Origin: Escherichia coli
GTDB lineage: Bacteria; Pseudomonadota; Gammaproteobacteria; Enterobacterales; Enterobacteriaceae
Direction: 5' to 3' (one strand)
Assembly (NCBI RefSeq): GCF_024502345.1
Contig: NZ_JALDNN010000001.1
DNA length: 64,000 bases
Part shown: positions 2,892 through 63,626 of the stretch, piece after piece
How the letters are laid out: each line of letters starts with the position of its first letter
Numbering within the stretch: position 1 is the first letter of the stretch
Made by a program: the position numbers and the translations under genes
Notes under the pieces: generated by a model
Seen by the model: only the letters and a program-made list of their open reading frames with translations
The model's database searches: none
What the model was told of the DNA's origin: nothing

Positions 2892-3008
2892 GCAGTTAAG
2901 ATAGCAAAACTTAAATGATTTGTTACATGAATCAGTTAAATGTGTGATGCGTACCATTTTTATTAAAAAAATTAATGTGTTTCAGTCAATTGCGAAAGGA
3001 TGATCACA

Positions 3009-3662
3009 ATGAAGAAAATTGGCGTAATTCTGAGCGGATGCGGCGTCTATGACGGTTCTGAAATTCATGAAGCGGTGTTGACGTTGTTAGCTATTTCACG
3101 CAGCGGTGCGCAGGCGGTCTGCTTTGCACCGGATAAGCAGCAGGTTGATGTTATCAACCATTTAACTGGCGAAGCGATGACGGAAACGCGCAACGTGCTG
3201 ATTGAAGCGGCACGAATAACGCGCGGTGAAATCCGTCCTCTGGCCCAGGCCGATGCCGCTGAACTGGATGCGTTGATTGTGCCGGGGGGGTTTGGCGCGG
3301 CGAAGAATTTAAGCAATTTTGCCACTCTTGGTAGCGAATGCACCGTTGACCGTGAATTAAAGGCGCTGGCACAAGCGATGCATCAGGCCGGAAAACCGCT
3401 TGGTTTTATGTGTATTGCCCCGGCGATGCTGCCGAAAATTTTCGATTTCCCGCTGCGTTTGACCATCGGTACTGATATCGATACCGCAGAAGTGCTGGAA
3501 GAGATGGGCGCGGAGCATGTGCCGTGTCCTGTCGATGATATCGTGGTTGATGAAGACAATAAGATTGTCACCACCCCAGCATATATGCTGGCGCAGAACA
3601 TTGCAGAAGCGGCGAGCGGCATTGATAAGCTGGTTTCCCGCGTGCTGGTTCTGGCTGAATGA
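3009..3662 (+). CDS. elbB: glyoxalase ElbB (DJ-1/PfpI-like)
   Basis: 217 aa from ATG at 3009 (track ORF starts 9 nt earlier); [21 protein letters not shown]. Confidence 0.9.
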
Positions 3663-7295: not shown

Positions 7296-7317
7296 AGTGT
7301 CTTCCTTATCGGTTGGG

Positions 7318-8751
7318 TCAAACGAGCTGTTTACGCTGGTTTGACGGCGGAATGGATAAAGACTCTCGGTACTTCGCAACAGTGCGGCGTGCCACCATGA
7401 TACCTTGTTCCGACAGCAAAGAGGTTAACTTGCTGTCGCTCAACGGTTTCGCTGGGTTTTCCGCCGCGATTAATTTCTTCACCAGCGCACGAATCGCCGT
7501 GGAGGAAGCTTCGCCGCCGCCCTCGGTATTGACGTGACTGGAAAAGAAATACTTCAGTTCAAAAATGCCTCGTGGACTATGCAGGTATTTTTGCGTGGTC
7601 ACGCGAGATATCGTCGATTCATGCATTTCGACAGCCTGGGCGATATCGGCCAGTACCATCGGTTTCATATATTCTTCACCTTGCTCAAAGAAGGCTTGCT
7701 GCTGTTCAACGATACAGCGACTCACGCGCAGTAGCGTATCGTTACGGCTTTCCAGACTCTTGATCAACCATTTGGCATCCTGCAGATTGCTGCGGATAAA
7801 CTGGCTGTCACCATCGTTGCGCGCGTTATTGCACATCGAGGCGTAGTGCTGGTTGATTTGCAGACGCGGAATGCTGTCACTGTTGAGTTCTACCGTCCAG
7901 TGACCGTTATGCTTACGCACCAGCACATCTGGAATGACATACTCAGGTTCGCCAGTCTGGATCGACTGCCCGGGGCGCGGATCGAGCGACTGGATCAGAT
8001 TGACGGCTTCTTTCAGCACATCTTCTTTCAGACGCGTGACGCGCATTAAAGTGCGGAAGTCGTGATTGGCTAACAGATCGAGATGATCGCTAATGATCAG
8101 TCTGGCCTCTTCCAGCCACGGCGTGGTTTTATCGAATTGGGAGAGTTGGATTAGCAGGCAGTCACGCAGATCTTTTGCCGCTACACCGACCGGATCAAAC
8201 CGTTGGATCCGCTTAAGGACGGCTTCAACCTCGTCGATGTCGATCTCTTCATCGCCCATACTTTCGAGAATATCTTCCAGCGGGACAGTCAGATAACCGG
8301 TGTCATCAACGGCATCGACGATAGAGGTAGCAATAGCGCGGTCAGTGTCGGAAAACGGTGTCAGCTCGACCTGCCACATCAGGTAATCCTGCAAGGTCTG
8401 CGTCGTTTCGCCCTGATAGACCGGCAGCTCATCGTCAATGTAGTCACCGCTGGTGCCGGATGGTGTACCAGCGGTGTAAATGGTGTCCCAACTGGCATCG
8501 AGCGGCAGCTCTTCCGGCATCTCTTTTTGTTCGAGCGCGTCGGCGGTGTCCAGCGTTTCACTGTCTTGCGTTTCGCGGGTGTCGATTTCTTCATGAGTGT
8601 CGATTTGCTCAAGCAGCGGATTACTCTCCAGCGCCTGCTGTAGCTCCTGCTGAAGTTCCAGCGTCGACAACTGCAACAGACGAATTGCCTGTTGAAGCTG
8701 TGGCGTCATCGCCAGTTGTTGGCTAAGCCTGAGTTGCAAACCTTGCTTCAT
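7318..8751 (-). CDS. rpoN: RNA polymerase sigma-54 factor
   Basis: 477 aa; Gln-rich N-terminus, acidic region, RpoN box ([10 protein letters not shown]). Confidence 0.97.
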
Positions 8752-8798
8752 GTTCAGAATCGTACTCTCCTGCTAAAACGTCGCAAACTTCTACCCTA

Positions 8799-9524
8799 TC
8801 AGAGTCTGAAGTCTTCCCCAAGGTATACACGCTTAACGTGTTCGTCTTGTAAGATTTCTGTAGGCGTGCCGTGGGCGATCAAATGCCCCTGACTGACGAT
8901 ATAAGCGCGTTCACAAACCGCCAGTGTTTCACGCACGTTGTGGTCAGTGATCAGCACGCCCAGGCCGCTGTCGCGCAGGTGCTCAATGATGCGTTTAATG
9001 TCGATAACCGAGATCGGGTCAACCCCGGCAAACGGTTCGTCGAGCAGAATAAATTTCGGATTCGCAGCCAGTGCGCGGGCAATTTCTACACGGCGACGTT
9101 CACCCCCGGAGAGTGACTGCCCCATGCTGTCACGCAGGTGCTCAATGTGAAACTCTTCCATCAGCTCGTTCGCGCGGTCTTCACGTTGTTCAGCAGACAA
9201 GTCGTCACGAATTTGCAGTACCGCCATCAGGTTATCGTAAACGCTGAGGCGACGGAAAATGGAGGCTTCCTGCGGCAGATATCCGATACCGCGGCGCGCG
9301 CGTGCATGCAGAGGCAGCAGACTGATATCGTCATCATCAATAATGATGTTGCCCGCATCGCGCGGCACAATGCCAACAACCATATAGAAAGTGGTGGTCT
9401 TACCGGCACCGTTTGGCCCCAGCAGACCGACAATTTCCCCGGAGTTGACGGTCAGGCTGACGTCTTCTACCACGCGACGGCCTTTATAGGCTTTTGCAAG
9501 GTTCTTTGCAGTTAATGTTGCCAT
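8799..9524 (-). CDS. lptB: LPS export ABC transporter ATPase LptB
   Basis: 241 aa; Walker [13 protein letters not shown] signature LSGGERRR. Confidence 0.97.
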
Positions 9525-13402: not shown

Positions 13403-15002
<1,600 letters not shown>

Positions 15003-16505: not shown

Positions 16506-16664
16506 ATTTTTTCAGGCCGGATATGGCGTTAACCGCCTGTCCGGCAAACCTGCCTGCAAGTCGAGCCTTGTCTGATTTATCAGCGAGGCTTTTTGCTTAT
16601 TTATGCCAGCGCAACTTTGCTCTAAGATGTTTCGCTGGTTTATTAACTGATGATTGAAGATCCC

Positions 16665-16919
16665 ATGGAAAATAATGAAATTCAGAGCGTGTTGATGAAC
16701 GCTCTCTCCCTCCAGGAAGTCCACGTTTCCGGCGATGGCAGCCACTTTCAGGTTATTGCCGTGGGTGAGTTGTTTGACGGCATGAGTCGGGTTAAAAAAC
16801 AGCAGACGGTCTATGGTCCGCTGATGGAATATATTGCGGATAACCGCATTCATGCTGTGTCGATCAAAGCGTATACCCCTGCGGAGTGGGCGCGCGATCG
16901 CAAACTGAACGGCTTTTGA
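16665..16919 (+). CDS. ibaG: BolA-family acid stress protein IbaG
   Basis: 84 aa from ATG at 16665 ([10 protein letters not shown]). Confidence 0.85.
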
Positions 16920-24360: not shown

Positions 24361-24607
24361 AATCTCGCGCTAACAACCTGGAATCGAGCCGTCATACTAC
24401 GGCGCAACGCCCTATAAAGTAAACGATGACCCTTCGGGAACTTCAGGGTAAAATGACTATCAAAATGTGAATTGTAGCTGACCTGGGACTTGTACCCGGG
24501 TCGGTATTTTTTTGCTTCTGGTCCCGGTGAGGAGTTATGCCGGGCAGGCCGAACAGCCGGGGTGGGTGAAGACTTGCCCCATCAGGAATATTCAAGAGGT
24601 ATAACAA

Positions 24608-26288: not shown

Positions 26289-26387
26289 CCGGGAGATTTC
26301 AGACGAAAGTTTGAAAGATGCTGGATATAGAGTATCCTGACGCTGTTTTTAACACAGTTGTAATAAGAGGTTAATCCCTTGAGTGAC

Positions 26388-28322: not shown

Positions 28323-28353
28323 GTTCCCGCATCAGATGACTGTATTTGTACCG

Positions 28354-28384
28354 AAAACCCCGGGGCGTGCTCCGGGGTTTTTTC
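28354..28384 (+). terminator. intrinsic terminator after ftsH
   Basis: AAAACCCCGGGGCGTGCTCCGGGGTTTTTTC. Confidence 0.7.
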
Positions 28385-28411
28385 TTATCAATTCATACCA
28401 GGGATAACATC

Positions 28412-31164: not shown

Positions 31165-31251
31165 GCCGAGGTGGTGGAATTGGTAGACACGCTACCTTGA
31201 GGTGGTAGTGCCCAATAGGGCTTACGGGTTCAAGTCCCGTCCTCGGTACCA
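31165..31251 (+). tRNA. leuU: tRNA-Leu (anticodon GAG)
   Basis: 87 nt; acceptor stem GCCGAGG/CCTCGGT, anticodon loop CTTGAGG, long variable arm, 3' CCA encoded. Confidence 0.9.
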
Positions 31252-31325: not shown

Positions 31326-32279
31326 CTATTTACCTAGGCATAAATCTGTTTCATCTAGTTTGAAATCTGTAATTTCTAACTTTTGCATTATTACCGGAAG
31401 CACTTGGTGAATTATTCTCATGCCAGTAAGGATCTCGTTCATGTATATATCTGGATGAATGCGAGATTTATTGAAATCGAAACGTTCGGCTTCTGCTGCA
31501 ACGCTAAGTTGGTCAGCGGTGTTATAAACCATTTCCAGAAGTTCGGCTCTTAACGGAATTCCCGCCCTGAATGCCATCATCTTGAGTTGATTCAACCAAT
31601 TTTCGTAGTCTTTTTTAACTCTATAACGAAATTCTTTAAAGTTTGACGCAACAGGAGTATCAATTTCAATTTTGCATGCAGCAAGTGATATCAATGAACT
31701 CTGAATATTGATGGCTTCGCTTGAATAGACATCTAAATCGTCGTCCTGAATCAACTCATCAACATATGCTATGTAGAAACCATAAACATCATTCAGAGCA
31801 TGATAAATATCATTAATTACAGAACAATGAGCATTGCTCTCTAATATCTCCCAAAAAGCCTCTTCTTCATCAGCATTATCGTCGTCAATATTAAGTCCTT
31901 CAGGAAAGGAAAGAGGTGTAGGAAAACCTATTCGCTTTAATACATCAATTGTTTCTTCAACCAAAAAACCATCTTCGTCAGTAAGAAGTTGTGTTATATA
32001 ACCCGTTTCAGCATCGTCCATAGCTCGTCGAGCAAGAAAATGGATAAGTCGATCCCATTTCTCAGCATTCGCGACTGAGCCTGTCCATTCAACTAGTTGA
32101 GGAGAATAATCTCCTATTTGTGTAATATTTCTGAACTTTTTTTCCATATCAGCGGACATGTGTTCCCCTTTTTTCCACTTGCTAATTTGTGTTGAGGAAA
32201 CACCTAAGTGGCTTGCTAAATCTTTTTGAGTGCATTTCAGAGTATGTAATGCGAGGCGTACAAAATATTCACCATTCAT
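31326..32279 (-). CDS. hypothetical protein, N-terminal XRE/Cro-type HTH plus unrecognised acidic C-terminal domain; occupies the slot held by yhbX in K-12
   Basis: 954-nt ORF (317 aa) with AAGGA 7 nt before the ATG; N-terminus TQKDLASHLGVSSTQISKWKKGE fits the Cro/C1 HTH pattern; AT-rich (about 33-36% G+C by hand count); function unknown. Confidence 0.75.
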   Translation of the reverse strand: MNGEYFVRLALHTLKCTQKDLASHLGVSSTQISKWKKGEHMSADMEKKFRNITQIGDYSPQLVEWTGSVANAEKWDRLIHFLARRAMDDAETGYITQLLTDEDGFLVEETIDVLKRIGFPTPLSFPEGLNIDDDNADEEEAFWEILESNAHCSVINDIYHALNDVYGFYIAYVDELIQDDDLDVYSSEAINIQSSLISLAACKIEIDTPVASNFKEFRYRVKKDYENWLNQLKMMAFRAGIPLRAELLEMVYNTADQLSVAAEAERFDFNKSRIHPDIYMNEILTGMRIIHQVLPVIMQKLEITDFKLDETDLCLGK

Positions 32280-34153: not shown

Positions 34154-34230
<77 letters not shown>

Positions 34231-34351
34231 CTTTCCCTTAGAGTCCTTTTTCAAATATACTGTGAAGACTTCGGCCTTCGTAGTGGGATTTGAAAAAATC
34301 CTTCTGGAAAGTGCTCCAGACCGCAGTTGCGGTTATAGGGTTCAGTTATAT

Positions 34352-34378
34352 AAAGCCCCGATTTATCGGGGTTTTTTG
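34352..34378 (+). terminator. terminator/attenuator-like hairpin between metY and rimP
   Basis: AAAGCCCCGATTTATCGGGGTTTTTTG; a second weaker hairpin plus T7 run follows at about 34398-34420. Confidence 0.5.
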
Positions 34379-34436
34379 TTATCTGACTACAGAATAACTG
34401 GGCTTTAGGCCCTTTTTTTATGTCTTGGGGGTGGGC

Positions 34437-34889
34437 TTGTCCACATTAGAGCAAAAATTAACAGAGATGATTACTGCGCCAGTTGAGGCCCTGGGTTTTG
34501 AACTGGTTGGCATCGAATTTATTCGCGGTCGCACATCCACACTGCGCATCTATATTGATAGTGAAGATGGCATCAATGTTGATGATTGTGCTGATGTGAG
34601 CCACCAGGTAAGTGCTGTGCTGGATGTTGAAGATCCCATCACCGTTGCTTATAACCTGGAAGTCTCCTCACCGGGTCTCGATCGCCCACTGTTCACGGCT
34701 GAACACTACGCCCGTTTTGTCGGAGAAGAGGTGACTCTGGTTCTCCGTATGGCGGTACAAAACCGTCGTAAATGGCAGGGCGTTATCAAAGCGGTAGACG
34801 GTGAAATGATCACAGTTACCGTCGAAGGTAAAGATGAAGTGTTCGCGCTGAGTAATATCCAGAAGGCGAACCTGGTTCCCCACTTTTAA
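34437..34889 (+). CDS. rimP: ribosome maturation factor RimP
   Basis: 150 aa if initiated at TTG 34437 ([11 protein letters not shown]); exact start uncertain, track ORF begins at an upstream TTG. Confidence 0.85.
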
Positions 34890-36428: not shown

Positions 36429-39101
36429 ATGACAGATGTAACGATTAAAACGCTGGCCGCAGAGCGACAGACCTCCGTGGAACGCCTGGTACAGCAATTT
36501 GCTGATGCAGGTATCCGGAAGTCTGCTGACGACTCTGTGTCTGCACAAGAGAAACAGACTTTGATTGACCACCTGAATCAGAAAAATTCAGGCCCGGACA
36601 AATTGACGCTGCAACGTAAAACACGCAGCACCCTTAACATTCCTGGTACCGGTGGAAAAAGCAAATCGGTACAAATCGAAGTCCGCAAGAAACGCACCTT
36701 TGTGAAACGCGATCCGCAAGAGGCTGAACGCCTTGCAGCGGAAGAGCAAGCGCAGCGTGAAGCGGAAGAGCAAGCCCGTCGTGAGGCAGAAGAATCGGCT
36801 AAACGCGAGGCGCAACAAAAAGCTGAACGTGAGGCCGCAGAACAAGCTAAGCGTGAAGCTGCTGAACAAGCGAAACGTGAAGCTGCGGAAAAAGACAAAG
36901 TGAGCAATCAACAAGACGATATGACTAAAAACGCCCAGGCTGAAAAAGCCCGCCGTGAGCAGGAAGCTGCAGAGCTCAAGCGTAAAGCTGAAGAAGAAGC
37001 GCGTCGTAAACTCGAAGAAGAAGCACGTCGCGTTGCTGAAGAAGCACGTCGTATGGCGGAAGAAAACAAATGGACTGATAACGCGGAACCGACTGAAGAT
37101 TCCAGCGATTATCACGTCACTACTTCTCAACATGCTCGCCAGGCAGAAGACGAAAGCGATCGTGAAGTCGAAGGCGGCCGTGGCCGTGGTCGTAACGCGA
37201 AAGCAGCGCGTCCGAAGAAAGGCAACAAACACGCTGAATCAAAAGCTGATCGTGAAGAAGCACGCGCAGCAGTACGTGGCGGTAAAGGCGGAAAACGTAA
37301 AGGTTCTTCCCTGCAGCAAGGCTTCCAGAAGCCTGCTCAGGCCGTTAACCGTGACGTTGTGATCGGCGAAACCATCACCGTTGGCGAACTGGCGAACAAG
37401 ATGGCGGTTAAAGGCTCTCAGGTCATCAAAGCGATGATGAAACTGGGCGCAATGGCAACCATCAACCAGGTTATCGATCAGGAAACCGCACAGCTGGTTG
37501 CTGAAGAGATGGGCCACAAAGTTATCCTGCGTCGTGAAAACGAGCTGGAAGAGGCGGTAATGAGCGACCGTGACACGGGTGCTGCGGCTGAACCGCGCGC
37601 GCCGGTTGTGACCATCATGGGTCACGTTGACCACGGTAAAACCTCTCTGCTGGACTACATTCGTTCAACGAAAGTTGCCTCTGGCGAAGCGGGCGGCATT
37701 ACCCAGCACATTGGTGCATACCACGTTGAAACTGAAAACGGCATGATCACCTTCCTGGACACCCCGGGGCACGCCGCGTTTACTTCAATGCGTGCACGTG
37801 GTGCGCAGGCAACGGACATCGTAGTCCTGGTTGTTGCTGCCGACGACGGCGTGATGCCGCAGACCATCGAAGCAATCCAGCACGCGAAAGCGGCGCAGGT
37901 ACCGGTGGTGGTTGCAGTGAACAAGATTGATAAACCAGAAGCCGATCCGGATCGTGTTAAGAACGAACTCTCCCAGTATGGCATCCTGCCGGAAGAGTGG
38001 GGCGGTGAAAGCCAGTTCGTACACGTATCTGCGAAAGCGGGTACCGGCATCGATGAACTGCTGGACGCTATCCTGCTGCAGGCGGAAGTTCTGGAGCTGA
38101 AAGCGGTACGTAAAGGTATGGCGAGCGGTGCGGTTATCGAATCCTTCCTCGATAAAGGTCGTGGTCCGGTTGCTACCGTTCTGGTACGTGAAGGTACTCT
38201 GCACAAGGGCGATATCGTTCTGTGTGGCTTCGAATACGGTCGTGTTCGTGCGATGCGTAACGAACTGGGTCAGGAAGTGCTGGAAGCGGGTCCGTCCATT
38301 CCGGTGGAAATCCTCGGCCTGTCCGGCGTACCGGCTGCGGGTGATGAAGTTACCGTTGTACGTGACGAGAAGAAAGCGCGTGAAGTTGCACTGTATCGTC
38401 AGGGTAAATTCCGCGAAGTTAAACTGGCGCGTCAGCAGAAATCTAAACTCGAGAACATGTTCGCCAACATGACCGAAGGCGAAGTTCACGAAGTGAACAT
38501 TGTCCTGAAGGCAGACGTACAGGGTTCTGTGGAAGCGATCTCCGACTCCTTGCTGAAACTGTCTACTGACGAAGTTAAAGTGAAGATCATCGGTTCTGGC
38601 GTAGGTGGTATCACCGAAACCGACGCCACCCTGGCTGCGGCGTCCAACGCCATCCTGGTTGGCTTTAATGTACGTGCTGATGCCTCTGCACGTAAAGTGA
38701 TTGAAGCGGAAAGCCTGGATCTGCGTTACTACTCCGTCATCTATAACCTGATCGACGAAGTGAAAGCGGCAATGAGCGGTATGCTGTCTCCGGAACTGAA
38801 ACAACAGATTATCGGTCTGGCGGAAGTTCGTGACGTATTCAAATCACCGAAATTTGGTGCCATTGCAGGTTGTATGGTTACCGAAGGTGTGGTTAAACGT
38901 CACAACCCGATCCGCGTTCTGCGCGACAACGTGGTTATCTACGAAGGCGAGCTGGAGTCCCTGCGCCGCTTCAAAGATGACGTTAACGAAGTCCGTAACG
39001 GTATGGAATGTGGTATCGGCGTTAAGAACTACAACGATGTCCGCACTGGCGATGTGATCGAAGTATTCGAGATCATCGAAATCCAACGTACCATCGCTTA
39101 A
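36429..39101 (+). CDS. infB: translation initiation factor IF-2
   Basis: 890 aa; repetitive [11 protein letters not shown]-terminal region, G domain ([18 protein letters not shown]). Confidence 0.97.
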
Positions 39102-39114
39102 GGTTGTCTGGGTT

Positions 39115-39188
39115 GTAGGCCGGATAAGGCTTTTACGCCGCATCCGGCAGCCGTTGCCTGATGTGACGCTGGCGCGTCTTATCAGGCC
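39115..39188. repeat. REP (repetitive extragenic palindrome) pair
   Basis: GTAGGCCGGATAAGGC...ACGCCGCATCCGGCA and GCCTGATGTGACGCTGGCGCGTCTTATCAGGCC. Confidence 0.7.
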
Positions 39189-40662: not shown

Positions 40663-41137
<475 letters not shown>

Positions 41138-41274
41138 AGGTTCGCGCGGCTAATGAGAGGCTTTACCCACATTGGGCTGGGTTAGGGTTGTCATTAGTCG
41201 CGAGGATGCGCAGAAGATCGGGTATTAACACCAGTGCCGTAAGGTACTGTCTAAGAAAGAGAAAGGATATTACA

Positions 41275-43410
41275 TTGCTTAATCCGATCGTTCGTAAATT
41301 CCAGTACGGCCAACACACCGTGACTCTGGAAACCGGCATGATGGCTCGTCAGGCTACTGCCGCTGTTATGGTTAGCATGGATGACACCGCGGTATTTGTT
41401 ACCGTTGTTGGCCAGAAAAAAGCCAAACCAGGTCAGGACTTCTTCCCACTGACCGTTAACTATCAGGAGCGTACCTACGCTGCTGGTCGTATCCCGGGTA
41501 GCTTCTTCCGTCGTGAAGGCCGCCCAAGCGAAGGCGAAACGCTGATCGCGCGTCTGATTGACCGCCCGATTCGCCCGCTGTTCCCGGAAGGTTTCGTCAA
41601 CGAAGTTCAGGTTATCGCCACCGTGGTTTCTGTTAACCCGCAGGTTAACCCGGATATCGTCGCGATGATTGGTGCTTCCGCAGCACTGTCTCTGTCTGGT
41701 ATTCCGTTCAATGGTCCGATTGGTGCTGCTCGCGTAGGTTACATCAATGACCAGTACGTACTGAACCCGACTCAGGACGAGCTGAAAGAGAGCAAACTGG
41801 ATCTGGTTGTTGCCGGTACTGAAGCCGCTGTTCTGATGGTTGAATCTGAAGCTGAACTGCTGAGCGAAGACCAGATGCTGGGCGCAGTAGTGTTCGGTCA
41901 TGAACAACAGCAGGTTGTTATTCAGAACATCAATGAACTGGTGAAAGAAGCCGGTAAACCACGTTGGGACTGGCAGCCGGAGCCGGTAAACGAAGCGCTG
42001 AACGCGCGCGTTGCTGCACTGGCTGAAGCTCGCCTGAGCGATGCTTACCGCATCACCGACAAACAAGAGCGTTATGCGCAGGTTGATGTCATCAAATCTG
42101 AAACCATCGCGACGCTGCTTGCTGAAGACGAAACCCTGGACGAAAACGAACTGGGTGAAATTCTGCACGCTATCGAGAAAAACGTTGTTCGTAGCCGCGT
42201 ACTGGCAGGCGAACCGCGTATCGACGGTCGTGAAAAAGATATGATCCGTGGTCTGGATGTGCGTACTGGCGTGCTGCCGCGTACTCACGGTTCTGCGCTG
42301 TTCACCCGTGGTGAAACGCAGGCGCTGGTTACTGCAACGCTGGGTACCGCTCGTGACGCACAGGTTCTTGATGAACTGATGGGCGAACGTACCGACACCT
42401 TCCTGTTCCACTACAACTTCCCTCCGTACTCCGTAGGCGAAACCGGCATGGTCGGTTCTCCGAAGCGTCGTGAAATTGGTCACGGTCGTCTGGCGAAGCG
42501 CGGCGTGCTGGCAGTCATGCCGGATATGGACAAATTCCCGTACACCGTACGTGTTGTGTCTGAAATCACTGAATCCAACGGTTCCTCTTCTATGGCTTCC
42601 GTGTGCGGCGCGTCTCTGGCGCTGATGGACGCAGGTGTGCCGATCAAAGCTGCCGTTGCGGGTATCGCAATGGGTCTGGTGAAAGAAGGCGACAACTACG
42701 TTGTACTGTCTGACATTTTGGGCGACGAAGATCACCTGGGCGATATGGACTTCAAAGTTGCGGGTTCCCGCGAGGGTATCTCTGCATTGCAGATGGATAT
42801 CAAAATTGAAGGTATCACCAAAGAGATCATGCAGGTTGCGCTGAACCAGGCTAAAGGTGCGCGTCTGCATATCCTGGGCGTAATGGAACAGGCGATCAAC
42901 GCGCCGCGTGGCGATATCTCTGAGTTCGCACCGCGTATCCATACCATCAAGATCAACCCGGACAAGATCAAAGATGTTATCGGTAAAGGCGGCTCTGTTA
43001 TCCGTGCCCTGACCGAAGAAACCGGCACCACCATCGAAATCGAAGATGACGGTACTGTGAAGATCGCAGCGACCGACGGCGAGAAAGCGAAACACGCTAT
43101 TCGTCGTATCGAAGAGATCACTGCAGAAATTGAAGTGGGCCGCGTCTACACTGGTAAAGTGACCCGTATCGTTGACTTCGGCGCATTTGTTGCCATCGGC
43201 GGCGGTAAAGAAGGTCTGGTACACATCTCTCAAATCGCTGACAAACGCGTTGAGAAAGTGACCGATTACCTGCAGATGGGTCAGGAAGTACCGGTGAAAG
43301 TTCTGGAAGTTGATCGCCAGGGCCGTATCCGTCTGAGCATTAAAGAAGCGACTGAGCAGTCTCAACCTGCTGCAGCACCGGAAGCTCCGGCTGCTGAACA
43401 GGGCGAGTAA
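41275..43410 (+). CDS. pnp: polynucleotide phosphorylase
   Basis: 711 aa if initiated at TTG 41275 ([14 protein letters not shown]); KH and S1 regions at C-terminus. Confidence 0.93.
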
Positions 43411-44402: not shown

Positions 44403-44581
44403 CTGACGTACACATCAGCCCGTAATCTTTTTTGATTGCCATCACCTTAACGGGTGAGGGCGTTGTTGTTCGTTAATACACCTACTTTGAGCCGGTTCAC
44501 ACTTTTCAATGAAAATTGCTGATCAATTTCATGATGAGTTATGTAGACTGGCCGCCATTAATTTTGAGGCACACGTACTAC

Positions 44582-46471
44582 ATGGCTGAATTCGAAACCA
44601 CTTTTGCAGATCTGGGCCTGAAGGCTCCTATCCTTGAAGCCCTTAACGATCTGGGTTACGAAAAACCATCTCCAATTCAGGCAGAGTGTATTCCACATCT
44701 GCTGAATGGCCGCGACGTTCTGGGTATGGCCCAGACGGGGAGCGGAAAAACTGCAGCATTCTCTTTACCTCTGTTGCAGAATCTTGATCCTGAGCTGAAA
44801 GCACCACAGATTCTGGTGCTGGCACCGACCCGCGAACTGGCGGTACAGGTTGCTGAAGCAATGACGGATTTCTCTAAACACATGCGCGGCGTAAATGTGG
44901 TTGCTCTGTACGGCGGCCAGCGGTATGACGTGCAATTACGCGCCCTGCGTCAGGGGCCGCAGATCGTTGTCGGTACTCCGGGCCGTCTGCTGGACCACCT
45001 GAAACGTGGCACTCTGGACCTCTCTAAACTGAGCGGTCTGGTTCTGGATGAAGCTGACGAAATGCTGCGCATGGGCTTCATCGAAGACGTTGAAACCATT
45101 ATGGCGCAGATCCCGGAAGGTCATCAGACCGCTCTGTTCTCTGCAACCATGCCGGAAGCGATTCGTCGCATTACCCGCCGCTTTATGAAAGAGCCGCAGG
45201 AAGTGCGCATTCAGTCCAGCGTGACTACCCGTCCTGACATCAGCCAGAGCTACTGGACTGTCTGGGGTATGCGCAAAAACGAAGCACTGGTACGTTTCCT
45301 GGAAGCGGAAGATTTTGATGCGGCGATTATCTTCGTTCGTACCAAAAACGCGACTCTGGAAGTGGCTGAAGCTCTTGAGCGTAACGGCTACAACAGCGCC
45401 GCGCTGAACGGTGACATGAACCAGGCGCTGCGTGAACAGACACTGGAACGCCTGAAAGATGGTCGTCTGGACATCCTGATTGCGACCGACGTTGCAGCCC
45501 GTGGCCTGGACGTTGAGCGTATCAGCCTGGTAGTTAACTACGATATCCCGATGGATTCTGAGTCTTACGTTCACCGTATCGGTCGTACCGGTCGTGCGGG
45601 TCGTGCTGGCCGCGCGCTGCTGTTCGTTGAGAACCGCGAGCGTCGTCTGCTGCGCAACATTGAACGTACTATGAAGCTGACTATTCCGGAAGTAGAACTG
45701 CCGAACGCAGAACTGCTGGGCAAACGCCGTCTGGAAAAATTCGCCGCTAAAGTACAGCAGCAGCTGGAAAGCAGCGATCTGGATCAATACCGCGCACTGC
45801 TGAGCAAAATTCAGCCGACTGCAGAAGGTGAAGAGCTGGATCTCGAAACTCTGGCTGCGGCACTGCTGAAAATGGCACAGGGTGAACGTACTCTGATCGT
45901 ACCGCCAGATGCGCCGATGCGTCCGAAACGTGAATTCCGTGACCGTGATGACCGTGGTCCGCGCGATCGTAACGACCGTGGCCCGCGTGGTGACCGTGAA
46001 GATCGTCCGCGTCGTGAACGTCGTGATGTTGGCGATATGCAGCTGTACCGCATTGAAGTGGGCCGCGATGATGGTGTTGAAGTTCGTCATATCGTTGGTG
46101 CGATTGCTAACGAAGGCGACATCAGCAGCCGTTACATTGGTAACATCAAGCTGTTTGCTTCTCACTCCACCATCGAACTGCCGAAAGGTATGCCGGGTGA
46201 AGTGCTGCAACACTTTACGCGCACTCGCATCCTCAACAAACCGATGAATATGCAGTTGCTGGGCGATGCACAGCCGCATACTGGCGGTGAGCGTCGTGGC
46301 GGTGGTCGTGGTTTCAGTGGCGAGCGTCGTGAAGGCGGTCGTAACTTTAGCGGTGAACGCCGTGAAGGTGGTCGTGGTGATGGTCGTCGTTTTAGCGGCG
46401 AACGTCGTGAAGGCCGCGCTCCGCGTCGTGATGAATCTACCGGTCGTCGTCGTTTCGGTGGTGATGCGTAA
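44582..46471 (+). CDS. deaD: DEAD-box RNA helicase DeaD (CsdA)
   Basis: 629 aa from ATG at 44582 ([13 protein letters not shown]); motifs [15 protein letters not shown]; RG-rich C-terminal repeats. Confidence 0.9.
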
Positions 46472-50956: not shown

Positions 50957-51164
50957 AATTTTTCCTGAAGGTTGCGCTATCAAAACGCAAAAATGTTAAC
51001 GAACTGGGATTTTAGTTAACCTTGCTGCGACAATTTTTGATTTAAGGCAGTTAAAGTTGTATTGGTGGTAGCAGCAATTTCATATGGAATTGTTGATTTA
51101 TACCGCTATGTTATTTTTCTGATATGGCAAAATAGGATGATTGTTGAAACAGGGAGTAAAACTC

Positions 51165-51689
51165 GTGTTGGATAAACTGCGTTCCCGCATTGTGCATTTG
51201 GGACCATCTCTGTTGAGTGTACCGGTAAAACTGACGCCATTTGCGCTAAAACGCCAGGTTCTTGAGCAGGTCTTAAGCTGGCAATTCCGCCAGGCGCTGG
51301 ATGATGGTGAGCTGGAGTTCCTTGAAGGCCGCTGGTTAAGTATTCATGTGCGTGATATTGACCTGCAATGGTTTACCTCGGTGGTGAATGGCAAACTGGT
51401 GGTCAGCCAGAACGCGCAAGCTGATGTGAGTTTTAGTGCCGACGCCAGCGATCTGCTGATGATTGCGGCGCGTAAACAAGATCCGGATACGCTCTTCTTC
51501 CAGCGTCGGCTGGTGATTGAAGGCGATACGGAACTGGGGCTGTATGTGAAAAACCTGATGGACGCCATTGAACTGGAGCAAATGCCGAAAGCCTTACGCA
51601 TGATGCTGCTGCAACTGGCGGATTTTGTTGAGGCGGGAATGAAAACCGCGCCTGAAACCAAACAGACATCGGTAGGTGAACCATGCTAA
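51165..51689 (+). CDS. ubiT: SCP2-domain protein UbiT (YhbT)
   Basis: 174 aa if initiated at GTG 51165, with AGGGAG 8 nt upstream; divergent from ubiU. Confidence 0.8.
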   Translation: MLDKLRSRIVHLGPSLLSVPVKLTPFALKRQVLEQVLSWQFRQALDDGELEFLEGRWLSIHVRDIDLQWFTSVVNGKLVVSQNAQADVSFSADASDLLMIAARKQDPDTLFFQRRLVIEGDTELGLYVKNLMDAIELEQMPKALRMMLLQLADFVEAGMKTAPETKQTSVGEPC

Positions 51690-56041: not shown

Positions 56042-56632
56042 TTAATCATCCTGGTGAGGGAAAAGCGTGTTATCGATCAGATCGCACAGGCAATTTACCG
56101 TCAGCATATGCATTTCCTGAATGCGAGTACTACGATGCGAAGGAATGCGGATCTCCACATCCTGTGGCCCTAACAAACCTGCAAGTTCACCGCCGTCATA
56201 GCCGGTCAATGCCACAATGGTCATATCACGCGTAACGGCAGCTTCTACCGCTTTTACAATATCGCGGCTGTTGCCACGGGTAGAAATGGCTAACAATACA
56301 TCTCCCGCATGACCCAGCGCCCGCACCTGTTTTGCATACACTTCATCATGTAAGCGATCGTTGGCAATCGCCGTTAAGACAACATTATCAGTATTTAGTG
56401 CAATGGCAGGTAAGCTGGGCCGCTCCGTTTCGAAACGGTTGATCATGCTGGCAGCAAAATGCTGTGCATTGGCAGCGGAAGTTCCATTACCACAACAGAG
56501 GATTTTGTTGCCATTGAGCAGAGACTGAACCAGCGTCATGGCCGCACGGGAGATGGCATCCGGAAGCGCCTCTGCCGCCGCAATTTGAGTTTGAATGCTT
56601 TCAGTGAAGCAAGCTTTAATTCTTTCTTGCAC
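56042..56632 (-). CDS. diaA: DnaA initiator-associating protein DiaA (SIS domain)
   Basis: 196 aa. Confidence 0.9.
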
Positions 56633-60007: not shown

Positions 60008-61099
60008 TTACCGCACGATGACGGTAATGGTGGCGGTGCCCTGAAATTTTCCTGTTTCCAGCTCACCACCGACCAGATTAACTGGCCAGGCGCGCATGTT
60101 GATGGTGCCATGCCCGGAAGGATCAACGGGAAGGATACCGTTCTGAAAAGGAATATTTGCAACTCCGCCGCCGAGATTTTCAATACGAATACCGACATCG
60201 GGCGCATTGTCTGAACTTCTTCGTCTGGCGACCAGGTTGTACTGGTCTACTACCCCAGTTGTACCGTCGATGCGCATTTGCAACGAGTTTTTAATCTTTG
60301 AAGTATCACCACAGTCATAAGTGATATCAAAGTCTACTGGAGTAAAACCGTCTGGCATGGCATTGCGGGTGGTAAACTTCTGACCATTGATGAATCCAAA
60401 ATTAACCTTAATAACATCGCCCTGATTAATTTTGCACGACTGTGGGGCGGTGAGATTTCCCTGAATCGATAACTTGACTAAATCATGGAAGTCACCTGTA
60501 GACGGGCTTCCCATTCCATCGACCCATGCGCCTTTAATGACGGCAATATCCGTTTTCGGAATGGTCATCGAGCCGAGAAATGGCTTGGTGACATACAGGG
60601 TAAAGGTGGTATTTGCACCAATATTAACGGGTCCATAACGAGACGTGTCACCCTGGCAAACACCCGTTTGAGTTGCAGCAGAATATACGGTGTTGCTTTT
60701 TATCTGTGTGAATCGGGTGTTAACAGAAACGGTCTGGTCAGTCACGAGTCCTGGAATGTCATTCGCCTGTAATGTGGTTTTAATATCCAGACTATCATTG
60801 AGTTTGTAATATCCTGCTTGATGTCCAGTGGTGGTAAGTACAGGGCTGACCATATAGACAAGTTTAACTGCCTTACCCGCAGAGCAGGTACAGGCGTATT
60901 GCCAGTTAGTGCTACTTAGCGTGGCAGAGGTAAACTCCCGTCCTGTCACGTTATCTGTCTGGTTCACCGTAACATCATCAACCACACTGCTGTAATTTGT
61001 CGCACCGCTAGTGCTGTCAGCTCCACACCCTCCTGAGGAGGCATAAGCGCAGGATGTGGATATCAACAAAAGTCCTGTTATAAGAGGCGCTCTTTTCAT
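60008..61099 (-). CDS. yraK: fimbrial adhesin-like protein YraK
   Basis: 363 aa from ATG at 61099 (MKRAPLITGLLLISTSCAYA); track ORF extends 86 codons into the usher gene. Confidence 0.8.
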   Translation of the reverse strand: MKRAPLITGLLLISTSCAYASSGGCGADSTSGATNYSSVVDDVTVNQTDNVTGREFTSATLSSTNWQYACTCSAGKAVKLVYMVSPVLTTTGHQAGYYKLNDSLDIKTTLQANDIPGLVTDQTVSVNTRFTQIKSNTVYSAATQTGVCQGDTSRYGPVNIGANTTFTLYVTKPFLGSMTIPKTDIAVIKGAWVDGMGSPSTGDFHDLVKLSIQGNLTAPQSCKINQGDVIKVNFGFINGQKFTTRNAMPDGFTPVDFDITYDCGDTSKIKNSLQMRIDGTTGVVDQYNLVARRRSSDNAPDVGIRIENLGGGVANIPFQNGILPVDPSGHGTINMRAWPVNLVGGELETGKFQGTATITVIVR

Positions 61100-61109
61100 T
61101 TTTTTATCC

Positions 61110-63626
61110 TTAATGGCACTGCGCCGTGCCTTGTAATACAGAGGTTGTTGGTTCTGAATCCGGTGTACTAAAAGCAAACTGACATTGTTGATCTGCCTGA
61201 TTTCCCCAGCGTACAGTCCAGCTTTGTGATTTACTCGATATCCCAGAGAGATATAGTATGCCGCCCTCATCGACGATACTTTGTTGCCCCGTCTCATCGT
61301 TGCTGGCAAGAGCGCCAAAGGGCAACGGTTTACCGTTGCGATCGCTGACTGTAACAAGTACGCGATAACCGATATTGGCGTTGAAACGCGCCGCTACCAT
61401 TGCACCTCTGTTGGGCACCACAAACTGTGTTGTTTGCTCAAGATCGACGTTATCGGGCAGCTGCGTAGTATCTACCGAGAGACGGTTTTCCTGGTAAGTC
61501 GTGAGATAAGGAACCACTGCATAGCCAAAGGGATCAGTAGCAATCCCCGGATAGTTTTGTATCCTCACGCCAGAAGCCCCATTAGCATCGATAAGCGCAA
61601 AAGCGTTGCCCAGATATTGCGAGAGCGTCACGCCATGAGGATGGATAACCACGCCGCCGGTAACGCCGTAATTGTATTGGCTGCTGTCATTACCGTAACT
61701 GTATCCGGCACTGAAGGTGCCATAAGGTGAACGGTAACTGGCGTTCAGGCTACTGTTATGGTTGTTATCGTCATCCAGACTTTGTTCCAGGCTATAGCTC
61801 AGGCGACCATCATCCAGCAGTGAGCCATCAAGACGCATTTCATGTTGGGTTGGGCGATCTTTCTGGCTGGTCATCTGATAGGAAACCCGGCTACGCGGTA
61901 ACCAGCGTTCTAACGGAATACTGAGATTCAAAGAGAGTGCGCGGTCATTATTTTGATCCGTGTAGCGACTGTATTGATAATTCAGGCTGTAACCAATTCC
62001 CCATTGCTGGCCGGAAACCCCAACTGAGATATTCCTGTTTTTATCGTTATTGCCCCAATAGTCTTGCTGCGAACCGGAGGCATACAGACTTACCCCATCA
62101 AATATTGTCTGGCTGATGTTGAATTGAATTTCACTTTTTTGGCGACTGTTATAGTCCCAATTGCGGGTATTGGCTTCATCAAAACTAAAATAGCCATCGT
62201 TGGTATAGCGATAGTAGCTAACAGCGATATTGGTGTTGGTTTCCGGGATATCTTTGATGTACTGCGTACGCCATTGATAGCCATGAAAAGAGTGCTGGTT
62301 ATCGAATTGGGTGTCAGCTCTGTTGATATCCATCGACAACGCGCCCAGTGCGCCAAGTGTGCCGCCGATACCGATCCCCAGCGCATAATAATCTTCAGAA
62401 CCGAGCAGGCCGCCATACAGCGTAAAAGTATTATTCAAACCATATATTGCCGTGGCTTCAGCAAATTCGGGTTCCTTGCTATCACTGTTTGCATCAGCGC
62501 GATAGCGTCCAGCGGTCGCGCTATATTTTAGATGCCCAGGTCGCTGCATCATGGGTAATGAAGAATAAGGCTGGATAAAGCGACGTTGTGTACCGTCACT
62601 TTCTTCAATCGTGACTTCTAAATCGCCGCTGTTGGAAGAGGGGTAGAGATCGTTAATTTCAAAGGCACCCGCTGGCACGTTGCTTTGATAGATCACATAA
62701 CCATTTTGCCTGATAGTCACGATTGCACTACTGTTTGCGATACCGCGTACCGTTGGGGCAAATCCGCGCTGGCTGTTTGGCAACATATTATCGTCGGAAG
62801 CGAGTTGCACGCCAGTAAAGGTGTAGCTGGAAAAAATACTGCCGCTGGTGGCGCTTTCTCCCAGAAGCAACTGAGACTTCAACGCCTTGATATCACGTTG
62901 TAAATAACTACTGATAGTGTTCCAGCTTGACGCCTGATCGTTGCGTGTCCACGTAGAATAGTTACGTAATCGCCAGGGGCCAAAATTAGCACCATTTTGC
63001 ATATTCAGGTACTGTCGTTGGCTACGATTGCCCTGGCGGTAACGGTTATTAGAACCTGTAAACGAGTAGTTGGTAAACAGCGTTGGTATACCATCGTCCC
63101 AACGAGAAGGGGAGACGTAACCTCTTGCATCACGGTACAGTGCAATTTGGGGAATGCTCAAATTAAGTCGCTGATGATTGAAATCAAATTCAGCAGCTGT
63201 ACCGGGAATGATTTGTTCAAGCGAGTTGATCACGCTATCGTCATCTTTTTCAGCCAGCGCCGGGATTTCATCCACCTTAATACCCAGCTCACGTAGTTGT
63301 TCTACCGTAAACTGTGGCTGCAGAAGTTGCTCTGCATTGGCGGTAAATGTAATTTTTTTCTGTGAAACCTTCTTTTTATTCAGCCAGATATCAACCTGAT
63401 AAGTTCCTGGTAGTTGTGCGTATTTTTTTGAAAAACGTGACAGATCAGTTGTTTGCATACCACTTTTTGTAGTTTCCAGCATAATGGGGTCGAAATAATA
63501 CTCTTCGGCGTTAGCGGTAGTGCAAAGCATGCCGCTGCCAGTGAGCACCATCGGCAAACAGCGTTTGATGATGAGCGCCAACTGTTTCGGTGTGCGTTTA
63601 TGTCCCTGGTGGTGTCGTTGTGGCAT
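61110..63626 (-). CDS. yraJ: fimbrial outer membrane usher YraJ
   Basis: 838 aa. Confidence 0.85.
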   Translation of the reverse strand: MPQRHHQGHKRTPKQLALIIKRCLPMVLTGSGMLCTTANAEEYYFDPIMLETTKSGMQTTDLSRFSKKYAQLPGTYQVDIWLNKKKVSQKKITFTANAEQLLQPQFTVEQLRELGIKVDEIPALAEKDDDSVINSLEQIIPGTAAEFDFNHQRLNLSIPQIALYRDARGYVSPSRWDDGIPTLFTNYSFTGSNNRYRQGNRSQRQYLNMQNGANFGPWRLRNYSTWTRNDQASSWNTISSYLQRDIKALKSQLLLGESATSGSIFSSYTFTGVQLASDDNMLPNSQRGFAPTVRGIANSSAIVTIRQNGYVIYQSNVPAGAFEINDLYPSSNSGDLEVTIEESDGTQRRFIQPYSSLPMMQRPGHLKYSATAGRYRADANSDSKEPEFAEATAIYGLNNTFTLYGGLLGSEDYYALGIGIGGTLGALGALSMDINRADTQFDNQHSFHGYQWRTQYIKDIPETNTNIAVSYYRYTNDGYFSFDEANTRNWDYNSRQKSEIQFNISQTIFDGVSLYASGSQQDYWGNNDKNRNISVGVSGQQWGIGYSLNYQYSRYTDQNNDRALSLNLSIPLERWLPRSRVSYQMTSQKDRPTQHEMRLDGSLLDDGRLSYSLEQSLDDDNNHNSSLNASYRSPYGTFSAGYSYGNDSSQYNYGVTGGVVIHPHGVTLSQYLGNAFALIDANGASGVRIQNYPGIATDPFGYAVVPYLTTYQENRLSVDTTQLPDNVDLEQTTQFVVPNRGAMVAARFNANIGYRVLVTVSDRNGKPLPFGALASNDETGQQSIVDEGGILYLSGISSKSQSWTVRWGNQADQQCQFAFSTPDSEPTTSVLQGTAQCH

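Follow-up and report, generated by a model that had tools for sequence, protein, structure and literature searches.

Non-ATG start codons and over-extended longest-ORF calls in a 64-kb interval of an Escherichia coli chromosome

Introduction

Where does the rimP gene of Escherichia coli begin, and how well can the start of a bacterial gene be read from its open reading frame? At this locus the question is posed by three candidate start codons, TTG 34425, GTG 34431 and TTG 34437, all of which lie within 12 nt. A sequence-only reading of the 64,000-nt stretch of DNA that carries the gene (contig NZ_JALDNN010000001.1, hereafter called the window) had claimed TTG 34437 as the start of rimP, TTG 41275 as the start of pnp and GTG 51165 as the start of ubiT. 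It had also warned that calling the longest possible open reading frame over-extends many genes of this interval. All three proposed codons coincide exactly with the starts given by the curated K-12 annotation and by PGAP.

Weak start codons are a regular feature of this organism. Peptide-verified starts in E. coli comprise 628 ATG, 50 GTG and 10 TTG codons (PMC13245402), and ATG, GTG and TTG account for 83, 14 and 3% of annotated genes, respectively (10.1101/063800). The curated starts in the window include 62 ATG, two GTG and two TTG codons, which fits the genome-wide rate (binomial p = 0.66 against 60 non-ATG codons among 688 verified starts). We consider it very likely that the UUG codons of rimP and pnp and the GUG codon of ubiT are near-cognate starts of ordinary genes, and that the over-extended calls are a by-product of the rule used to make them. 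In the mechanism that we favor, the initiator fMet-tRNA would read UUG (rimP, pnp) or GUG (ubiT), and a Shine-Dalgarno sequence located 5 to 8 nt upstream would set the position of the initiation codon in all three genes. Because the near-cognate codon would be decoded by fMet-tRNA, the three proteins would still begin with methionine.

Results

The window and its reference annotations

The window corresponds approximately to the reverse complement of K-12 MG1655 between ~3.288 and ~3.353 Mb, and represents the E. coli chromosome of a strain other than K-12. Its gene order runs from yhcC' and arcB through rpoN-hpf, ftsH-folP, rimP-nusA-infB, rpsO-pnp, deaD and ubiT to yraK-yraJ. A 24-kb query taken from the window finds matches in 5,425 of 5,426 complete E. 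coli genomes, and the closest RefSeq genome is that of strain 1500 (NZ_CP040269.1, 99.2%). All 64 curated K-12 coding sequences of the interval map to the window, collinear and intact, with the exception of yhbX, which is replaced. The curated K-12 annotation (NC_000913.3) and the PGAP annotation of the closest genome assign identical starts to all 64 shared genes. As for yhbX (541 aa in K-12), it is missing between leuU and argG, where a 317-aa gene (31326-32279, minus strand) is found instead. This gene has a weak N-terminal helix-turn-helix match (Pfam HTH_19, under the curated cut-off) and is annotated alike in strain 1500.

The following RNA features of the window derive from Rfam or from the annotation of the closest genome:

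2784-2891, minus strand: ArcZ
24391-24512, plus strand: greA leader
31165-31251, plus strand: tRNA-Leu (leuU)
34154-34230, plus strand: tRNA-fMet (metY)
39118-39188, plus strand: naRNA4, downstream of infB
40701-40815, plus strand: S15 leader
41045-41216, minus strand: SraG, antisense to the pnp leader

Throughout this work, the strength of a ribosome-binding site is expressed as its predicted pairing with the 3' end of 16S rRNA in kcal/mol. N-terminal peptides are those of K-12 in TRAINSPOTTER Table S1 (PMC13245402). INRI-seq Table S3 covers alternative sites only, such that the annotated rimP and ubiT starts are neither confirmed nor refuted by this table. The PDB sequences of DiaA, RimP and FtsH copy the database annotation and therefore do not constitute independent evidence for a start.

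The likely UUG start of rimP

Translation of rimP from TTG 34437 yields a RimP protein that is identical to that of K-12 at 150 of 150 residues. The relevant features are as follows:

34437..34889, plus strand: rimP coding sequence, 150 aa, start TTG 34437-34439, with 100% nucleotide identity to K-12 b3170; curated and PGAP start
34426..34435, plus strand: rimP ribosome-binding site, the G-rich run TGGGGGTGGG, identified by pairing with the 16S 3' end
34319..34419, plus strand: rimP leader, Rfam RF01770 (102 bits; gathering score 47), with its end 17 nt upstream of the TTG

If rimP instead began at GTG 34431 or at TTG 34425, then its product would be a 152-aa protein (MGLSTLEQ...) or the 154-aa protein of the longest ORF. 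Both upstream codons are widespread, with a GTG two codons before the TTG in 80 of 80 enterobacterial species and a TTG four codons before it in 75 of 80. TTG 34437 is itself conserved in 80 of 80, and enterobacterial conservation cannot separate it from GTG 34431 because the whole leader is nearly invariant. This near-invariance upstream of rimP arises because the RF01770 leader adjoins the gene. Furthermore, the three candidates are at most 12 nt apart, which is finer than the resolution of a ribosome footprint. TRAINSPOTTER Table S1 holds no N-terminal peptide of RimP, an absence that leaves some room for the upstream codons, and the only rimP entry among the INRI-seq alternative sites is a weak, out-of-frame ATT. 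A literature search for start-codon mapping experiments on rimP (yhbC) found none.

The position of the ribosome-binding site separates the candidates more sharply. TTG 34437 has a predicted 16S pairing of -9.7 kcal/mol, whereas the value is only -0.9 for GTG 34431 and -2.4 for TTG 34425. Indeed, the Shine-Dalgarno sequence falls 5 to 10 nt upstream of TTG 34437, but the same G-rich site overlaps GTG 34431 and is located downstream of TTG 34425. In two species the site reads GGAGG, 5 nt before the TTG, and the GTG there begins with the last G of this motif. The single codon that separates GTG from TTG varies non-synonymously in four species (GGC to GCC, GAC or GCG), whereas residues 2 to 7 of the protein are near-invariant, and the more distant TTG is replaced by CTG in five species.

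The choice between TTG 34437 and GTG 34431 is settled by Haemophilus influenzae, whose RimP (P0121) is encoded from a TTG at the matching position; AGGAG precedes this TTG by 6 nt, and an in-frame TAG lies only two codons upstream. In Pseudomonas aeruginosa, rimP is called at a GTG that precedes SSKLEQ. Thus, the near-cognate codon aligns with residue 1 of the orthologues with no usable start upstream, and comparison excludes the two alternatives. We infer that RimP of this strain begins at TTG 34437, and regard initiation at either upstream codon as highly unlikely.

The experimentally established UUG start of pnp

The start of pnp is supported by the broadest range of evidence. PNPase translated from TTG 41275 is identical to the K-12 protein at 709 of 711 residues, and the features of this locus are:

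41275..43410, plus strand: pnp coding sequence, 711 aa, start TTG 41275-41277, supported by the curated start, a toeprint, a mutant, a peptide and conservation
41263..41267, plus strand: pnp ribosome-binding site AAGGA, 7 nt before the TTG, read from the sequence
41188..41274, plus strand: pnp over-extension of 29 codons into the pnp leader, from the longest ORF and the curated start

The UUG start of E. coli pnp is experimentally established. Specifically, the toeprint formed by 30S subunits and initiator tRNA lies 15 nt from the UUG, and mutation of the TTG to TGA abolishes translation initiation and expression (PMC5029454). The N-terminal peptide MLNPIVR maps to this TTG at K-12 position 3311168, with additional support from Ribo-RET and INRI-seq (PMC13245402 Table S1).

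Comparative data agree with this assignment. The TTG is present in 52 of 52 species represented by Enterobacteriaceae and Erwiniaceae genomes, and AAGGA or AAGGG is kept 7 nt before it at these 52 loci, while sequence farther upstream diverges freely. In 23 of the 52 species, no other start-like codon separates the TTG from the nearest in-frame stop upstream; 18 species carry an in-frame stop within 5 to 9 codons of it, and none of the earlier candidates recurs consistently from one species to the next. The extension region is not conserved as coding sequence.

The gene, the start codon and the ribosome-binding site are identical to those of the known E. coli rpsO-pnp operon, with its leader autoregulated by RNase III and PNPase and its small RNA SraG, and the window likewise carries both SraG and the S15 leader of that system. 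Apart from the two PNPase residues that differ from K-12, nothing substantial distinguishes the locus from its known counterpart.

The likely GUG start of ubiT

The ubiT gene encodes, from GTG 51165, a protein that is identical to K-12 UbiT at 174 of 174 residues:

51165..51689, plus strand: ubiT coding sequence, 174 aa, start GTG 51165-51167; curated and PGAP start
51152..51156, plus strand: ubiT ribosome-binding site GGGAG, 8 nt before the GTG, read from the sequence

Two TTG codons, 51144 and 51141, lie seven and eight codons upstream, and some automatic annotations start the gene at one of them to give a protein of 181 or 182 aa. The 182-aa version is present in public databases (P0056, 114 member sequences). 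TTG 51144 is preceded by AGGA at a distance of 6 nt and is shared by Salmonella and Citrobacter. However, predicted pairing is -4.0 kcal/mol for these TTGs versus -7.7 for GTG 51165, and the great majority of homologues among the matches listed are 174 aa long. An initial homologue search returned only relatives with at least 90% identity, and more distant ones were obtained through a representative library. In many representative UbiT homologues from this 50%-identity library, residue 2 is matched to residue 10 of the 182-aa product of the longest ORF, so that the first residue of these homologues falls at the GTG.

GTG is found at the equivalent codon in Salmonella, in Citrobacter and in four homologues with 65, 52, 49 and 39% identity. 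The DNA of these four homologues carries a ribosome-binding site 5 to 9 nt upstream of the conserved GTG and in-frame stops two to five codons upstream, leaving no start-like codon in between. The GTG is therefore aligned with residue 1 of the orthologues, with no usable upstream start, and the comparison excludes the TTGs.

The promoter of ubiT also bears on this choice. The Fnr site F2, TTGATTTATACCGC, is present at 51093-51106 (plus strand). Based on this site and on the promoter description in PMC10470549, the Fnr-dependent proximal transcription start would be located at ~51140. On such a transcript, the upstream TTGs would lie at the extreme 5' end and would have no ribosome-binding site upstream of them. 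UbiT (b3157) has no entry in TRAINSPOTTER Table S1 or in the INRI-seq table of alternative sites, and a search of the literature for start-codon mapping experiments on ubiT (yhbT) returned none. We infer that UbiT of this strain begins at GTG 51165; initiation at either TTG is hardly credible.

Further non-ATG and alternative starts

Although the three non-ATG starts listed in the sequence-only reading are right, the list omits diaA GTG 56632, the internal infB GTG 36900 and, probably, ftsH TTG 26379. The first two are:

56042..56632, minus strand: diaA coding sequence, 196 aa, start GTG 56632-56630; curated K-12 and PGAP start
36900..36902, plus strand: internal GTG of infB, start of a shorter form of IF2 in the K-12 annotation, identical in the window
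36921, plus strand: second internal start of infB, an ATG

The diaA GTG is the first start-like codon past an in-frame TAA six codons upstream, and AGGA is located 5 nt before it. No N-terminal peptides of DiaA or DeaD are present in TRAINSPOTTER Table S1.

In the tandem, in-frame arrangement of infB, full-length IF2 is made from an AUG and the shorter forms from GUG158 and AUG165. N-terminal peptides are on record for all three starts, those of the two internal ones including MTKNAQAEK... Like rimP, which belongs to the same operon, infB uses a non-ATG codon, GTG, for initiation. Unlike the rimP start, the infB GTG is an additional internal start that yields a second form of the protein, rather than the sole start of the gene.

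N-terminomics in K-12 has also revealed alternative in-frame starts for three other genes represented in the window. For rpoN it is a CTG located two codons before the start (8755-8757, minus strand), which Ribo-RET and INRI-seq also detect; for mlaF, a GTG at codon 5 (13415-13417, plus strand); and for lptB, an ATG at codon 48 (9381-9383, minus strand). The K-12 protein sequences of all three genes are the same in the window, as is the sequence context for rpoN and mlaF. An in-frame ATG also occurs five codons before the curated ATG of ibaG (16650-16667, plus strand), with predicted pairing of -2.2 versus -1.0, and another is present three codons before the curated ATG of elbB (3000-3011, plus strand). 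In both genes, either ATG may be the start.

A probable UUG start for ftsH

A different situation is encountered at ftsH, where the curated start rather than the longest ORF appears to be in error:

26379..26381, plus strand: ftsH TTG, three codons before the annotated ATG 26388; probable start of a 647-aa protein (MSDMAK...), supported by profiling, lacZ fusions, spacing and conservation

The gene is annotated from ATG 26388 (644 aa) in NC_000913.3, by PGAP and in PDB entries. Tetracycline ribosome profiling (TetRP) identified a "new site TTG -9" for ftsH, and in lacZ fusions this TTG initiated more efficiently than the ATG (Nakahigashi et al. 2016, PMC4909307). The same authors cite Wang et al. 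1998 and Akiyama 1999, and note that earlier reports of the ftsH UUG never reached GenBank (PMC4909307). INRI-seq also shows an in-frame ftsH peak at TTG -9.

Sequence features point in the same direction. GAGGT (26367-26371) is located 7 nt before the TTG but 16 nt before the ATG, and predicted pairing is -6.5 kcal/mol for TTG 26379 versus -2.7 for ATG 26388. The sequence TTGAGTGACATG at this start is invariant in 38 of 38 enterobacterial species, and P. aeruginosa ftsH has the same geometry, with GAGGG followed after 7 nt by TTG AAC GAC ATG. The real start of ftsH is therefore probably TTG 26379, in which case the longest ORF would be right and the curated ATG 26388 wrong.

The ftsH re-annotation (PMC4909307) adds a non-ATG start to those of rimP, pnp and ubiT in the window, in this case with an in-frame ATG nearby. 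It differs from the others in that the error is reversed, with databases using a downstream ATG while the longest ORF is probably correct.

Over-extension by the longest-ORF rule

The longest-ORF rule begins each gene at the first ATG, GTG or TTG after a stop, and its calls for 66 complete genes were compared with their curated starts. The longest ORF exceeds the curated gene in 22 of these 66, by 3 to 86 codons. The greatest differences are found for yraK (86 codons), mlaB (32), pnp (29), hpf (28), folP (22), deaD (22), secG (16), yraR (15) and yhbO (14), and thirteen further genes are over-extended by 3 to 9 codons. When CTG is also allowed, 26 genes are over-extended by 2 to 86 codons, with rpoN extended by 2. 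The earlier estimate of at least 20 genes over-extended by 2 to 86 codons is thus borne out in its count and its upper bound, but under the ATG/GTG/TTG rule the lower bound is 3 rather than 2. Its named examples, yraK, pnp, hpf, folP and deaD, are all confirmed. Representative cases, in addition to the pnp extension given above, are:

61100..61357, minus strand: yraK over-extension, 86 codons, the largest (longest ORF 60008-61357; curated start ATG 61099), overlapping yraJ by 248 nt
7296..7379, minus strand: hpf over-extension, 28 codons, overlapping the last 62 nt of rpoN
28346..28411, plus strand: folP over-extension, 22 codons, with pairing of -4.9 at the curated ATG 28412 versus +0.4 at TTG 28346
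44516..44581, plus strand: deaD over-extension, 22 codons, wholly inside yrbN in another frame, with pairing of -5.6 at the curated start versus +0.4

Over-extension is an expected by-product of the longest-ORF rule and, if anything, is depleted here. Scanned upstream in the true frame, 33% of the 66 sites meet a start-like triplet ahead of any stop, versus 51.5% when the two remaining frames are scanned from these sites (Fisher p = 0.016). In-frame triplets of this kind often precede a gene, either in non-coding DNA or in the last part of its upstream neighbor, with no stop in between.

Might some of these extensions nevertheless be real or alternative starts, with curated starts too short for several genes besides ftsH? 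The ftsH gene itself offers a precedent, the rpoN CTG has peptide evidence, the upstream ATG of ibaG pairs slightly better than the curated one, and elbB has its in-frame ATG three codons upstream. On the whole, however, the data weigh against such an interpretation. The ribosome-binding site is stronger at the curated start in 20 of the 22 over-extended genes, as is the case for yraK (pairing of -5.9 at the curated start versus -2.4 at the longest start). Of the 22 extensions, nine overlap the gene upstream, including those of yraK over yraJ (248 nt), mlaB over mlaC (96 nt), hpf over rpoN (62 nt) and deaD across yrbN; lptA, kdsD, ubiV and mlaD show smaller overlaps. Eighteen genes of the window have their curated start confirmed by an N-terminal peptide, among them five that the rule over-extends (yraR, pnp, rbfA, rplU and ptsN). 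Moreover, the TetRP tables of new sites (PMC4909307) give only ftsH among the window genes sought by name. With ftsH as the exception and ibaG as a possible second one, the over-extended starts lack a ribosome-binding site of their own, overlap the preceding gene or are contradicted by a peptide. Several curated starts being too short is accordingly an unlikely explanation, and the extensions are best viewed as products of the rule. Beside the deaD extension, yrbN (44509-44589, plus strand; 26 codons) overlaps the curated deaD start by 8 nt.

Alignment to curated K-12 proteins and N-terminal proteomics had been proposed as checks on the original claims. The alignment bears out the three non-ATG starts as well as the five over-extensions given as examples, and the proteomic table provides fMet-LNPIVR from the pnp TTG as well as the curated-start peptides of the 18 genes. 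The warning against over-extension holds for ~21 genes and probably fails for ftsH, whose 3-codon extension is most likely the true start.

Discussion

Why have these genes retained weak start codons? The UUG keeps its first base in all 52 species sampled for pnp and all 80 sampled for rimP, even though A or G at this position would also produce a start codon. In the same species, four-fold degenerate sites within the first 60 codons are saturated, such that 0 of 25 sites (pnp) and one of 19 (rimP) are invariant. Non-AUG starts also occur farther out, with UUG for H. influenzae rimP, GUG for P. aeruginosa rimP and pnp, and UUG for P. aeruginosa ftsH, and the GUG of ubiT is kept down to 39% protein identity. 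In the retrieved sequences of distant gamma-proteobacteria, these codons are located as follows:

10001 and 16483 of L093 (P. aeruginosa): non-AUG starts
601 of L088 (H. influenzae): non-AUG start
401 of each of L089 to L092: non-AUG starts

General surveys identify AUG as the favored start codon (PMC5622118). Given this preference, the stability of the weak starts seen here provides a hint of gene-specific selection for a sub-optimal start. Judged from sequence comparison, the notion that these codons are kept by selection rather than being accidents is a doubtful one. The pattern does not amount to evidence for regulation, and the constancy of the first base of the UUG could instead result from constraints on the structure of the leader RNA.

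A more speculative proposal is that a weak start subject to discrimination by IF3 might tie the output of genes for ribosome assembly, RNA decay and quality control to the state of the initiation machinery. The infC gene offers a model for such an arrangement. Its AUU start permits autoregulation through IF3 discrimination, and the regulatory role of this codon has been demonstrated experimentally. The AUU start of infC is also mentioned in the literature (10.1101/063800). Like rimP, pnp, ubiT and ftsH, infC carries a conserved sub-optimal start, and it is a gene of the translation apparatus. Whereas a regulatory role is known for the codon of infC, what the four genes share with it here is only the conservation of a weak codon. 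Immature 30S subunits have been found to initiate more readily at non-AUG codons (PMC6868393). If rimP were regulated through its start codon, then this preference of immature subunits would give the gene a feedback loop.

Regardless of how the weak codons came to be kept, the non-ATG starts and over-extended calls in this interval are ordinary details of annotation that are already documented in curated databases and in the literature, and their relevance is to annotation quality only. Longest-ORF calling in this region adds spurious N-terminal extensions of 3 to 86 residues to approximately one third of the proteins, whereas ATG-only calling would truncate or lose RimP, PNPase, UbiT and DiaA. 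Because the curated start of ftsH is probably wrong, the curated annotation is itself not an infallible reference. The sole practical consequence concerns ftsH, for which reference databases keep the downstream ATG despite the published evidence for a UUG start three codons upstream.
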